A DNA stretch of 8,692 nt from a virus (taxonomy: Duplodnaviria; Heunggongvirae; Uroviricota; Caudoviricetes). The stretch lies in the IMG/VR virus record IMGVR_UViG_2778261591_000007; one strand, 5' to 3'. Position 1 is the first letter of the stretch, and each line of letters starts with the position of its first letter. Below, one piece after another: positions 1,426-4,356 of the stretch. Both the position numbers and the translations under genes were made by a program. The notes beneath the pieces were generated by a model, which saw nothing but the letters and a program-made list of their open reading frames with translations, was not told the origin of the DNA and did no database searches.

Positions 1426-1499
1426 GTCGTTAATTCCTATGCGTGGTTTTACGATACCGAAGCCCTGACTGTTCCCGCAGTTGGGGCTTCACTGTTTTG
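1424..1499 (+). ncRNA. sar: Candidate sar-like antisense RNA covering the ant ribosome-binding site and start codon
   Basis: Near-consensus promoter (1391..1419) followed about 35 nt later by a long hairpin (1459..1490; 13-bp stem with two G-U pairs, 6-nt loop) and a U-rich tail (TTTT at 1495..1498, then GATTTCTTTG). Predicted transcript about 70 nt, complementary to the ant SD and start. Matches the known P22 sar arrangement (68-69 nt antisense RNA in the arc-ant region). Confidence 0.4.
1459..1499 (+). terminator. Intrinsic terminator hairpin for the candidate sar RNA
   Basis: GAAGCCCTGACTG / CAGTTGGGGCTTC stem around loop TTCCCG, followed by ACTGTTTTGATTTC on the plus strand. The U-tract is separated from the stem by 4 nt, so efficiency is uncertain. 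Confidence 0.4.
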
Positions 1500-1925: not shown

Positions 1926-2174
1926 ATGGCAAAGGGTGTGTCAATTTCTCCAACTACGGTAAGAATCCCTGAATCTTTACGCGAGGCTCTTTCTGTCAGA
2001 GCATCAAAAAATGGTCGCTCTGTTAACTCCGAGATCGTCATGATTTTGCAAGCCGCGATTGATGAAGATAGGTCGCCAAAGTCAGTTGAGTCATTTGCTC
2101 AGCAAGAAGCTGACAAATTCAAAGAGGCGCTGCTTGAGACGCTAAAGACCATGTATGGTAAGGATGAAAAATGA
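1926..2174 (+). CDS. mnt: Mnt-like ribbon-helix-helix repressor
   Basis: 82-aa ORF, the same size class as P22 Mnt. N-terminal RHH region (TVRIPESLREALSVRASKNGRSVNSEIVMILQAAI) parallels the P22 Mnt motif (…FRMPMEVREKLKFRAEANGRSMNSELLQIVQDAL). AAGGTG Shine-Dalgarno at 1916..1921. Divergent from arc-ant as in P22 immI. Confidence 0.8.
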   Translation: MAKGVSISPTTVRIPESLREALSVRASKNGRSVNSEIVMILQAAIDEDRSPKSVESFAQQEADKFKEALLETLKTMYGKDEK

Positions 2175-2498: not shown

Positions 2499-2684
2499 TC
2501 AACAGCTTCCGCGTACCTGAGTAATTCTGTCGCGGATTTGCTTCTTACGGTGATTTAAGCTGGAGAGCTTGGCTTCTGCTTCTGATATTTGCGCATCAAG
2601 ATCTTTAAGCTCAAGATCTGAAAGTCGCTGGTCAAGCAGGGTTTGATTCAACTCAATGTTGTTCAGACGTTCTTCTATGGTCAT
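2499..2684 (-). CDS. Small hypothetical coiled-coil protein (61 aa)
   Basis: ATG 2684..2682 preceded by a perfect AAGGAG at 7-nt spacing. Product is a heptad-like, charged, Leu-rich helix (…LLDQRLSDLELKDLDAQISEAEAKLSSL…). No family recognised. Expression is doubtful because a terminator hairpin lies immediately upstream. Confidence 0.3.
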   Translation of the reverse strand: MTIEERLNNIELNQTLLDQRLSDLELKDLDAQISEAEAKLSSLNHRKKQIRDRITQVRGSC

Positions 2685-2696
2685 GATTACTCCTTA

Positions 2697-2726
2697 TAAA
2701 AAACCCACCTGACGGTGGGTTTTATT
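2697..2726. terminator. Bidirectional rho-independent terminator
   Basis: Stem CCCACC (2704..2709) / GGTGGG (2714..2719) with loop TGAC, flanked by an A-run (2698..2703) and T-run (2720..2723). Reads as a terminator on both strands: it ends the minus-strand operon 2746..3592 and plus-strand transcripts coming from mnt. Confidence 0.55.
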
Positions 2727-2745
2727 AGTGCTTGTATAGGTTGAA

Positions 2746-3144
2746 CTATCTATCAAGCCATATAACAAAAAATGTCGATCCAAGACGATAACCAACCATG
2801 GCTTTCAAATCATCAAATCTAAAAGCCAAGAAATGATCTACGTCTTCCGTTATATGACTGGGGATACCTGCTTTAATTGCACCCCTTGCAATCTTCTCAA
2901 ATCCAAGCTTATGCCTACCTTGCTGCTTAATATCTGCCCATGTTAGTTGACTTAATCTGTATAATTTATCAGCTAAGCCAGCTTTCTCATCTTTTTGGCA
3001 TTTCGTTATGCAGTGAGAGCTTTGGATGTAACAGAATGAAAATTTCGGTTTCTTTTGATCTGAATTCCCCCCTGACTGCGGCCCTAACTTTAACTTACCT
3101 GTAGATTCAGCAGGGGGGATAATCCTTTTAGATTTTCTTGCCAT
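2746..3144 (-). CDS. Hypothetical basic protein (132 aa), downstream partner of the Panacea-like gene; candidate toxin/effector
   Basis: ATG 3144..3142 lies 4 nt after the upstream gene's stop (TAACGAGATG), suggesting translational coupling. Product has a Lys/Arg-rich, probably disordered N-terminus (MARKSKRIIPPAESTGKLKLGPQSGGNSDQKKPKFSF), a Cys/His cluster (CYIQSSHCITKC) and a C-terminus ending …HFLAFRFDDLKAMVGYRLGSTFFVIWLDR. No family recognised. The longer track ORF (to 3219) starts at TTG and overlaps the upstream gene by 71 nt, so the ATG start is preferred. Confidence 0.5.
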   Translation of the reverse strand: MARKSKRIIPPAESTGKLKLGPQSGGNSDQKKPKFSFCYIQSSHCITKCQKDEKAGLADKLYRLSQLTWADIKQQGRHKLGFEKIARGAIKAGIPSHITEDVDHFLAFRFDDLKAMVGYRLGSTFFVIWLDR

Positions 3145-3148
3145 CTCG

Positions 3149-3592
3149 TTAGTTAATCCGAGTTGCAAAGTACTCTGCCATCTCCTTAGAACTAATTTCA
3201 GAACCACCAACACCCTCAATATAGTTTGATCTCCATGGTGACTCTTCGTGTGTCATGTTCCTCAGTTTCCAGGCAGAAAATTGCCCAAAAACATCCCAGA
3301 CTTCTTCTAATAGCTCTAACTGTTCTTCGCTGAATTTTTCAGCATCAAAAGACTCTGGAGAAGGGATAGCACCATTACCATATTGTTTATAACGGTGATA
3401 AAGCTCAGGGACAACAGGGCCATGCATCCAAGCTTCCATCTTATTCTGAAAAAGAGGCTCGCCAAGCAACGCCAATGAAAAACCCTGAGCATAGTAAACA
3501 AGCTTTTGTAATTTTAAATTAGAGATTGCGTCACCGCTATCCTCGTCACACCGCGACAGGAAGTAGTCGGCGACATCAAAACAAGTAAGCAT
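3149..3592 (-). CDS. Panacea-domain (DUF4065, SocA/GepA-like 'phage-associated protein') antitoxin-type protein
   Basis: Start taken as ATG 3592..3590 with GGAGG 7 nt upstream (the track start is a GTG two codons earlier). The segment DVADYFL…ISNLKLQKLVYYAQGFSLALLGEPLFQNKMEAWMHGPVVPELYHRY matches the DUF4065/Panacea signature as I recall it (T/N-KLQKLLYYAQ…G.PLF…EAW.YGPV.P.VY). Confidence 0.7.
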   Translation of the reverse strand: MLTCFDVADYFLSRCDEDSGDAISNLKLQKLVYYAQGFSLALLGEPLFQNKMEAWMHGPVVPELYHRYKQYGNGAIPSPESFDAEKFSEEQLELLEEVWDVFGQFSAWKLRNMTHEESPWRSNYIEGVGGSEISSKEMAEYFATRIN

Positions 3593-3966
3593 GAACACAC
3601 CTCCATCTTGATAGCCACAGCTAAGTATCCAACTATGTCAAATGTCATTTAATACTATAACAAAGCTATCAGCAATCCTTCGGAGGCTAACTTACAACCA
3701 CTTTAGCGACATGTTTAAACCATTACGTTTCACATTTACTGCATTTTCGCCGAAGTTACCTATAAGGTAATGTCACATTTCCTGCAAGTTTCATGCAATG
3801 TTGAAAAGTGAGCTATTCACTTTTCTATGACACCAAACACCAAAAATAGCACTTTTTGCTAAATCATTCGTCCAAGTTGTGGATGGTTTGTCGTTGACAC
3901 ATTTTCACACACCGCTCCACCAATAAAGTATCATCTGGTATCCTGCTCAAAACTAAGGAGGTTAGT
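3593..3966. promoter_or_regulatory. AT-rich divergent intergenic region with repeated motifs (promoters for the Panacea operon and the secreted-protein gene)
   Basis: 374 bp with no ORF. Direct repeats TCACATTTaCTGCA (3730..3743) and TCACATTTcCTGCA (3772..3785) flank an inverted repeat TTACC-tataa-GGTAA (3756..3770). Related TGTCA/CACATTT elements at about 3635..3650 and 3894..3910. TTGACA at 3894..3899 but no clean -10 at 17-bp spacing. Confidence 0.3.
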
Positions 3967-4356
3967 GTGAAGCGATTTCTTGCTGCTATGTTCTTATTCA
4001 TATCTTTTGGGGCTACAGCAGAGTGCTGGGTCGTTGGAGATATGCGCGGAATAAGCTATTCAGAACGAAATAATTTCCATCCGGAAGAAGATGGTTTTAG
4101 TGGAACATTCATCATTAAGACAAGCGGTGAAGATGCTAGCATCACATATTCTGGGACAGATGCGGGCGGCATGGCTTACAAAGTATTGTCTAAAAACTCC
4201 ATCATAGGAATCGGCGCGAATGGCGAAACTCAACGCGTTATCGACTCATGGGTAATACATCCTACTGGAACAGTTTTAATGTCAAAAACCATTTCCGGTT
4301 ATGGAAATATGGATTCAACCAAAGCTTTTGTTGGAAAAGTAAAAAGAAAATGTTAG
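3967..4356 (+). CDS. Secreted (periplasmic) hypothetical protein, 129 aa
   Basis: GTG start with AAGGAGG 5 nt upstream. N-terminal signal peptide MKRFLAAMFLFISFGATA with AXA cleavage (ATA|E). Mature part is beta-rich and Gly/Ser/Thr-rich, with Cys at both ends (AEC… and …KRKC). Convergent with gp16. No family recognised. Confidence 0.55.
   Translation: MKRFLAAMFLFISFGATAECWVVGDMRGISYSERNNFHPEEDGFSGTFIIKTSGEDASITYSGTDAGGMAYKVLSKNSIIGIGANGETQRVIDSWVIHPTGTVLMSKTISGYGNMDSTKAFVGKVKRKC

Follow-up and report, generated by a model that had tools for sequence, protein, structure and literature searches.

The panAT locus and its upstream spacer

The 8,692-nt stretch of viral DNA analysed here (hereafter, the window) comes from a P22-like (Lederbergvirus) prophage of Escherichia coli and is 99.9% identical to NZ_AP042673.1. 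It carries a leftward gene pair for the antitoxin PanA and a putative toxin, PanT, separated by a 374-bp spacer (3593-3966) from a divergent gene for a 129-aa exported protein. Most of this spacer (3593-3913) belongs, in diverged form, to a family of ~330-bp non-coding leaders, which occurs in P22-like, lambda-like and other temperate enterobacterial phages and precedes at least six different two-gene cassettes. An earlier note on this DNA had described two copies of a 14-mer on either side of an inverted repeat in the spacer, and had proposed that they bind a regulator of the divergent cargo genes, possibly the Panacea-containing complex. The repeat observation is real and somewhat larger than first described; the motif pair alone is a modest lineage-specific feature, and the leader family is more interesting.

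The elements of the spacer and its flanking genes are listed below. Conservation is expressed as the identity of window bases to 21 diverged leaders, for which the background is 0.51.

2746..3144, minus strand: putative PanT toxin (phrog_8366), partner of PanA, with a premature stop here
3149..3592, minus strand: PanA antitoxin, 147 aa (Pfam PF13274, E 8e-25), Panacea domain only
3635..3650, plus strand: outer element ATGTCAAATGTCATTT; the minus strand reads TGACAT-T-TGACAT over the predicted start site
3647..3654, minus strand: TATTAAAT, -10-like element of the predicted panAT promoter (TATTAAG in HK639); family identity 1.0, the loci having been retrieved with TATTAAAT in the search pattern
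3670..3675, minus strand: TTGCTG, -35-like element of the predicted panAT promoter; family identity 0.83, with ATTGCT kept in all leader types
3730..3743, plus strand: repeat copy 1, TCACATTTACTGCA; family identity 0.52; its 3' CTGCA lies within the family-conserved block and its TCACATTT part outside
3739..3770, no strand: conserved block CTGCATTTTCGCCGAAG together with the inverted repeat; 87.5% over 32 nt to Yersinia phage YeP1
3744-3755: TTTTCGCCGAAG, adjoining the inverted repeat; family identity 0.83
3756-3770, no strand: inverted repeat TTACC-N5-GGTAA; family identity of the arms 0.95 and 0.92, of the loop 0.41
3773..3786, plus strand: repeat copy 2, TCACATTTCCTGCA, 43 nt from copy 1; family identity 0.37
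3803..3825, no strand: 9-bp palindrome GAAAAGTGA-gctat-TCACTTTTC, lineage-specific, holding the third phased TCACTTTT (3817); family identity 0.28
3844..3864, plus strand: invariant block AAATAGCACTTTTTGCTAAAT, pointing towards 3967; the most conserved block of the leader
3845-3859: the 15-mer within this block; family identity 0.94
3894..3910, plus strand: outer element TTGACACATTTTCACAC, dependent on a minority allele and assigned beyond the PanAT module boundary at 3913/3914
3967..4356, plus strand: 129-aa signal-peptide protein (phrog_2651), divergent neighbour outside the leader family

A leader common to unrelated cassettes

Two loci with PanA homologues (L024 and L067) had kept short islands in the same order, as judged by eye, and these led to the family pattern GCAAAAAGTGCTAT-N175-200-TATTAAAT. 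This pattern retrieved 61 IMG/VR loci, and a second, related pattern retrieved more. The cassettes behind the leader include three PanA alleles, each with a PanT (147-aa PanA plus PanT); a 59-aa protein with a Fic/DOC protein (PF02661), inserted in lambda-like phages between the tail genes K and I; a 190-aa protein with YafO in HK639; a distant 185-190-aa Panacea protein with a 133-150-aa partner, present also in YeP1; and two pairs without Pfam matches (113 + 241 aa and 72 + ~256 aa). The leader is laid out in the order invariant 15-mer, palindrome position, phased unit, TTACC-N5-GGTAA, phased unit and candidate promoter. Homology ends at the -10-like TATTAAAT, beyond which each cassette has its own 5' untranslated region (UTR). 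A portable non-coding leader is common to these unrelated toxin-antitoxin (TA) cassettes, and the promoter-like pair, the inverted repeat, the 15-mer and a 43-bp phasing are kept in it. No description of a conserved leader module common to TA cassettes was found in the literature.

The segment 2698-3913 moves as one unit into another prophage type (L005), with its left boundary at a terminator hairpin (2698) and its right boundary at 3913/3914. The adjoining 3915-3972 is a separate P22-like linker, and 3593-3913 thus belongs to PanAT rather than to the rightward gene. In the lambda-like relatives there is no divergent gene beside the leader; control of divergent cargo, as the earlier note had it, is therefore not what the array is there for.

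Leader type is uncoupled from the PanA phylogeny. The ETEC-type allele carries the window's leader, yet its identity is higher to an allele behind the other leader type (82%) than to the window's own allele (70%); allele 3, at 82% identity to allele 2, sits behind the other leader type and has no 14-mer motifs. Upstream of PanA homologues of at most 69% identity there are no 14-mers, and blastn homology reaches no further than 10-30 bp from the ATG. Among 5426 complete E. coli genomes, 82 have the spacer at 94-100% identity, as do four phages (five records), and a search of the complete E. coli genomes for the group-2 leader found none. With 3722-3832 as query, blastn returned only the window's lineage and, in Yersinia phages, a match of 32 nt to the inverted-repeat block.

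Conserved elements and 43-bp phasing

As judged from the alignment of the family, the inverted repeat is a conserved element whereas the sequence of the flanking 14-mers is lineage-specific. Its loop reads TTATA, TGAGG or CGAGG across the family, and the repeat is found also in YeP1. About two inverted repeats with 5-bp arms are expected by chance (an estimate), yet these arms are kept in distant relatives. Conservation of the 14-mers in homologous islands, on which the earlier note had staked its proposal, does not extend outside the window's lineage, as the identities of 0.52 and 0.37 against the background of 0.51 indicate. At the place aligned to the 3803-3825 palindrome, other leaders carry ATAGGC-N3/4-GCCTAT.

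The spacing of the units is more widely kept than their sequence. Autocorrelation of the stretch from the 15-mer to the -10 placed lag 43 at the top of 82 lags in the other leader subfamily (mean z 2.84), and gave z 3.2 at lag 43 and z 3.95 at lag 87 for the window leader; the 43-bp signal exceeds z 1.5 in 15 of 16 sequences. Positions aligned to the 14-mers are again 43 bp apart in the other leaders, where the phased units read CTATCTCCTGAGAA, GTAACTTCTGCGAAAATGC and TTCGTCGAACATGC and pairs of units share 5-8 of 14 positions, versus 13 of 14 in the window. In this phased stretch the two subfamilies are only ~50% identical.

Repeats within the spacer

Copy 1 of the repeat reads TCACATTTACTGCA at 3730..3743, and the inverted repeat TTACC-tataa-GGTAA lies at 3756-3770 (arms 3756-3760 and 3766-3770, loop 3761-3765), both as previously described. 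Copy 2 is likewise present, but 1 nt away from the 3772..3785 given for it: TCACATTTCCTGCA occupies 3773-3786. A repeat search of the spacer returned this pair at 93% identity and 43-nt spacing, together with looser copies, ATGTCAAATGTC at 3635-3646 and TGACACATTT at 3895-3904. When the 374 bp were shuffled with dinucleotides preserved, 8 of 300 shuffles yielded a direct 14-mer pair with at most one mismatch. With up to two mismatches allowed, the 8.7-kb window has two occurrences of the 14-mer pattern where 0.46 would be expected, a count of two being reached in 14 of 200 shuffles. Elsewhere in the window the 14-mer was not found, and the similarity between the 43-bp units stops beyond ~14-16 nt.

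All four TCACWTTT sequences of the window fall inside 3730-3824, where 1.1 would be expected for the whole window. Three are on the plus strand at 43/44-nt spacing, including a third TCACTTTT at 3817, and the fourth completes the perfect 9-bp palindrome GAAAAGTGA-gctat-TCACTTTTC at 3803-3825 (0.01 expected). The outer TGTCA/CACATTT-like elements that had been added to the array (3635..3650 and 3894..3910) do exist as loose copies but are weak and poorly kept: the closest other (sister) allele group has four differences within 3635-3650, and CACATTT at 3896-3902 needs an A at 3901 that is present in only 2 of 31 unique sequences. Mnt/Arc operators were considered as a source of the repeats and rejected, as the immI control region (1848-1925) shares no motif with them.

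Candidate promoters

The best candidate for a cassette promoter is ATTGCT(G/C)-15-TATTAA on the minus strand (-35 at 3675-3670, -10 at 3654-3649), since it is conserved and placed exactly where leader homology ends. Transcription from it would start near 3642 and give a 5' UTR of ~50 nt. Numbered from this predicted start, copy 1 of the 14-mer would span about -88 to -101 and copy 2 about -131 to -144. The inverted repeat would fall between them at -114 to -128, and further out would come the palindrome (-161 to -183) and the 15-mer (about -205 to -220). For the rightward gene the probable start is in the linker, where TATCAT at 3929-3934 would be the -10.

Other readings of these sequences as promoter parts were discarded. 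No -35/-10 arrangement of the sigma-70 type fits the 14-mers on either strand. A sigma-54 promoter (GG at -24 and GC at -12; TGGCAC-N5-TTGCA) is likewise excluded, as the copies read TGTCAC-N5-CTGCA and TTTCAC-N5-CTGCA and the GG is missing from both. An extended -10, TGcTATTTT, within the invariant block (compare the T1 major-head promoter) varies at its last -10 position (TATTTA, TATTGA, TATTCA), and the T1-like copies function in the opposite orientation.

In the other subfamily (L208:3181-3193 / 3416-3428; also L225 and L217), a distal ATAyTACAGCAAT is an inverted copy of the -35 ATTGCTCAAATAT, ~222 bp away, and the two could pair by looping. No counterpart of this distal block is present in the window-type leader.

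The invariant block, the marbox and the T1-like repeat

The invariant block resembles a marbox, the site at which MarA, SoxS, Rob and RamA bind in Enterobacteriaceae. Read on the plus strand, 3846-3864 (ATAGCACTTTTTGCTAAAT) has no mismatch to the consensus AYnGCACnnWnnRYYAAAY (PMC3709825) and also fits perfectly the form gcannwwntgnnaaa derived from chromatin immunoprecipitation (PMC12052159). It is the only match in the window with at most one mismatch to the first of these, against 0.20 expected, and the block of the other leader subfamily has three and one mismatches to the two forms. Carriers of the element are almost all phages of Escherichia, Klebsiella, Salmonella, Shigella, Enterobacter, Citrobacter and Cronobacter. 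The leader element differs from the marbox in being invariant also at positions that are 'n' in the consensus. The centre of the marbox-like block (3855) lies ~213 bp from the predicted leftward start and ~86 bp, in forward orientation, from the predicted rightward start.

The same block fits a second known sequence. T1-like phages carry an intergenic 21-nt direct repeat, aaATAGCACnnnTTGnTAAAA, whose function was stated to be unknown in the TLS genome paper (PMC11447400), and AAATAGCACTTTTTGCTAAAT (3844-3864) agrees with it at all specified positions except the last base. A 30-mer probe matched 6418 places in 1125 phage records (up to 15 in a single genome), mostly in T1-like phages of Escherichia and Klebsiella. 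The T1-like phage KarlJaspers (L257) has 16 copies, of which 14 point at the next gene and 15 are followed by a good -10 hexamer exactly 17-18 nt after the 20-mer. The leader copy is likewise intergenic; it differs in standing 121 nt upstream of the gene at 3967, where the T1-like repeat precedes the next gene start by ~76 nt, in lacking the T1-like -10 spacing and in pointing away from the TA genes.

The T1-like repeat itself, ATAGCACTTTTTGTTAAAAC in KarlJaspers (in T1 at L255:1190-1225), has at most two mismatches to the marbox consensus. A forward class II activator box is centred near -41 (PMC9638938; PMC12052159). The marbox match and the -10 at 17-18 nt together suggest, on sequence, that the T1-like repeat has the geometry of such a box and that these promoters depend on Rob, MarA or SoxS. 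No link between the TA leader, the T1-like repeats and the marbox was found in the literature, and in the papers searched ATAGCAC is not named alongside any two of marbox, Rob, SoxS and bacteriophage.

In two relatives (L218 and L223) the invariant block occurs twice; the second copy, TTTTGCAAAAAGTGCTATT, is ~1.1 kb away and stands 7 bp upstream of the -35 of a dinI-like gene, whose promoter carries the LexA box TACTGTGTTTATATACAGTA.

Interpretation of the leader

We lean, on balance, towards reading the spacer as mostly (3593-3913) the leader of a mobile two-gene TA 'moron' in the late operon of a P22-like prophage, provided with a promoter and a phased array. Morons are reportedly the subject of Juhala et al. 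2000. They are independent transcription units, with their own promoter and terminator, in the late operons of temperate phages (review PMC3594210). PanAT similarly has a terminator hairpin and a promoter-like element; together with leader and terminator it stands between gp16 and immI, where related P22-like prophages have other cargo in its place, and leader-borne cassettes are found also between tail genes of lambda-like phages. What sets it apart from known morons is that the ~330-bp leader is itself a conserved portable module serving at least six unrelated cargo pairs.

Under this interpretation the leader would supply a cassette-independent promoter on the minus strand, and upstream of it a phased array of protein-binding sites would be presented on one helix face. 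The array may be read by a factor common to the phages' hosts and not by the antitoxin of the cargo; a host regulator or a nucleoid protein is the candidate, with the invariant block as a marbox-type site. The two 14-mers would then represent the lineage's homogenised version of two phased units rather than PanA operators, and might be auxiliary or architectural sites or a product of concerted evolution. What survives of the earlier proposal of an array of regulator sites is a non-coding, evidently regulatory spacer with a phased array around an inverted repeat with conserved arms; the Panacea complex as its regulator does not.

Several observations weigh against the moron-leader reading. Promoter prediction gave no sites for a strong sigma-70 promoter on either strand, and a position-weight-matrix sigma-70 scan peaks at 8.0 where the median maximum of shuffles is 9.5; the predicted panAT promoter, in which the spacer is 15 bp and the -10 ends in A, would be weak or need an activator. 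Neither the class I position (reverse, -56 to -85) nor that of class II (forward, -36 to -55) agrees with where the marbox-like block stands, and no good -10 follows it at 17-19 nt (the window has TGGTTT), unlike in the T1-like phages. The 43-bp signal is missing from one member (L217), and the periodicity z-scores are not independent, as the members are related and were retrieved by a single search pattern. Invariance of the 14-mers is confined to near-identical sequences, so that nothing shows selection on them specifically; their one variable site in 28 nt, against ~3 expected, is not significant.

A more specific proposal is tentative and, in our estimate, rather doubtful: that the leader is a portable host-wired module which plugs TA or defence pairs into the host stress circuit through a MarA/SoxS/Rob/RamA-type site and the array, using the same core as the T1-like repeats. 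If true, it would answer the published question about the T1-like 21-nt repeats (~16 per genome), and virulent and temperate phages would both be co-opting the host mar/sox/rob regulators. The link between leader 15-mer, T1-like repeat and marbox makes this standing question directly testable. More generally, the TA and defence cargo of prophages is usually thought to bring its own autoregulated promoter, whereas here the promoter region appears to be a separate, exchangeable module. For Panacea systems this argues that transcriptional control is not supplied by the antitoxin. The leader would also offer a handle on the expression of morons from a silent prophage and on the exchange of cassettes, with leader and terminator as homology arms.

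Alternative explanations

The 14-mers may have no function of their own and be remnants of an old 43-bp tandem duplication, homogenised by gene conversion in this lineage. We consider this unlikely, though it keeps appreciable weight. The carriers are 94-100% identical in the stretch, so that the 14-mers would seem conserved only because all carriers were recent copies, the motif region occurs in only five phage records, the 14-mer sequence is not kept in the wider family, and the similarity of the 43-bp units ends at ~14-16 nt, all as such remnants would have it. The 43-bp phasing, however, persists between subfamilies that are ~50% diverged, which is hard to obtain without constraint when indels are common elsewhere in the alignment, and an identity of 13/14 against 5-8/14 elsewhere implies either recent homogenisation or selection.

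There is only a slight chance, in our judgement, that the repeats are half-sites of the CRP type, or phased T-tracts by which the DNA is curved and the horizontally acquired cargo silenced in the manner of H-NS. The CRP consensus is AAATGTGA-N6-TCACATTT, and TCACATTT is exactly one of its arms. The three TCACWTTT on one strand at 43/44-bp spacing are ~4 helical turns apart, the palindrome AAAAGTGA-N5-TCACTTTT resembles a CRP site, and the absence of a strong sigma-70 promoter suggests activator dependence. Yet the partner half-sites match none of the five core positions at either copy, so that single arms are present and the dyad TGTGA-N6-TCACA is not; the palindrome has a spacer of 5 bp where 6 bp is needed, and the motif is absent from the other leader subfamilies. 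By eye, and against consensus sequences, none of CRP, CRP-S, CytR, LexA, PhoP, PhoB, CpxR, OmpR, NarL, OxyR, Fis, IHF or the DnaA box fits both copies. In the other subfamily, the palindrome ATAG-N7-CTAT is similar to one half of an OxyR site but is spaced wrongly.

Two further likenesses were noted. The F-plasmid sopC also has 43-bp repeats, which is a numerical coincidence only. The inverted repeat TTACCTATAAGGTAA contains ACCT-ATA-AGGT (3758-3768), and MqsA-type palindromes read ACCT-N2-4-AGGT. MqsA-like ZBD-HTH domains occur in some PanA proteins (PMC10440598), but the window's PanA has no MqsA-like domain and the other leader subfamily reads ACCC in one half; an 8-base match after many motifs tried is weak evidence.

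A role at the level of RNA or of coding (a structured panAT 5' leader, a small divergent or antisense RNA beginning at the invariant block, or a 42-aa open reading frame (ORF) on the plus strand at 3642-3770) is similarly improbable. Palindromes of different sequence stand at the same aligned place, ATAGGC/GCCTAT against ATAGGT/ACCTAT in HK639 being a two-sided change; a terminator-like hairpin is present at 3868-3886 on the plus strand, and TTGCAC-17-TACAAT is a good rightward promoter in some relatives. Most relatives, however, have a G at the key second -10 position of that promoter, and one-sided palindrome variants favour opposite strands in different members. The spacer has no Rfam match, single-sequence fold z-scores of -1.0 to -1.4 are ordinary, and RNAalifold on the two strands (-6.4 and -4.1 kcal/mol) gave neither covariation nor a consensus structure. 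Variability in the leader is flat across codon positions, with no codon periodicity. In the sister allele group the 42-aa ORF is left without start codons, and it meets stops elsewhere and shows no codon-position bias; a 43-aa ORF of the other subfamily and an open frame of ~49 codons over the invariant block were rejected as well, being without a start or with in-frame stops and having no codon-position bias. As there is no coding signal, no Rfam match and no conserved RNA fold, we conclude that the constraint acts on the DNA.

Type II TA operators are palindromes over the promoter, bound by the DNA-binding domain of the antitoxin with the toxin as co-repressor. The suggestion in the earlier note that the TCACATTTnCTGCA copies are such operators, through which PanA or PanA-PanT autoregulates panAT and the divergent gene, agrees with a two-gene operon that has the antitoxin first and repeats and an inverted repeat upstream, with the occurrence of the repeat above chance and with the presence of PanA (alleles 1 and 2) on all 33 of 33 motif-bearing IMG/VR contigs. 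It is nevertheless very improbable. Pfam gives only SocA_Panacea in PanA (residues 30-122 of 147) and NCBIfam only SocA-like, with no helix-turn-helix (HTH), ribbon-helix-helix, AbrB or Phd/YefM domain, and Ernits et al., from truncation work, consider transcriptional autoregulation by Panacea improbable (PMC10440598). The motifs would lie ~88-144 bp upstream of the panAT start predicted from TTGCTG-15-TATTAA, without overlap of the -35, -10 or start. They are also absent upstream of the more distant PanA homologues and from the allele 3 leader, so that sites do not co-vary with the antitoxin, and the same leader family serves other antitoxins in the Fic/DOC and YafO cassettes. With no DNA-binding domain in PanA and a leader type that does not follow PanA phylogeny, Panacea autoregulation is unsupported.

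Prophage context of the PanAT module

As a P22-like prophage, the window carries gp7, gp20, gp16, Mnt/Arc/Ant and sar. The late genes gp7, gp20 and gp16 are on the minus strand, gp16 being named from its position after gp20 (no Pfam match), and the immI region holds genes for a Mnt-like protein, Arc and Ant together with the sar RNA. Between late genes and immI lies the cargo: PanA, its partner protein, a terminator hairpin and the divergent 129-aa protein. The remaining features are as follows.

1427-1493, plus strand: sar RNA (Rfam RF00262, 76.6 bits), antisense RNA of the P22 immI region, beside ant
2697-2725, no strand: GC-rich hairpin AAAAAACCCACC-TGAC-GGTGGGTTTTATT with T/A runs on either side, directly after PanT; terminator
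3915..3972, plus strand: P22-like linker with -10-like TATCAT (3929-3934), ribosome-binding site AGGAGG (3956-3961) and GTG AAG

The top PHROG families for the Mnt-like ribbon-helix-helix protein (1926-2174, plus strand) are labelled 'partition protein ATPase' (phrog_2685, 8e-32), a label that is probably misleading or else points to ParG-like relatives. The premature stop in PanT lies at 2746-2748 (…WLDR*), where the 99.9%-identical prophage (L002) and homologues continue (…WLDREFNLYKH); the window's PanT lacks the last seven residues.

The linker (~40-55 bp, ATCATCTGGTATCCTGCTCAAAACTAAGGAGGTTrGTGTGAAG; window 3915-3972, L004:3180-3420, L167:2490-2720) is common to many P22-like prophages, with alternative cargo genes joined to it after codon 2: in the window the 129-aa exported protein, elsewhere a membrane protein of 62 aa. 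What related prophages have in the slot between gp16 and mnt is PanAT, a P63C-domain gene, a LexA-family gene or no gene at all. The P63C-domain gene (L166:2400-2500, L168:2400-2500) has four upstream copies of a palindromic box, ATGCAAGCAT / ATGCTTGCAT, which are a candidate operator array distinct from that of the PanAT leader.

In ETEC6333 (L004, junction L004:3002), window positions 2654-3739 are deleted at a 2-bp CT microhomology. The deletion takes PanAT, half of the leader and the start of a 61-aa ORF, and one of its ends lies inside repeat copy 1. This prophage was considered as a natural 'leader without PanA' and rejected, as the start of the next ORF is also removed.

Comparison with the ETEC4085-type prophage (L003) gives 55-80% identity in panA, 82-93% in 3571-3730 and 100% in 3731-3870. 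Across 3571-3970 the non-coding leader is far better kept than the genes, with a sharp step at ~3728, just before copy 1.

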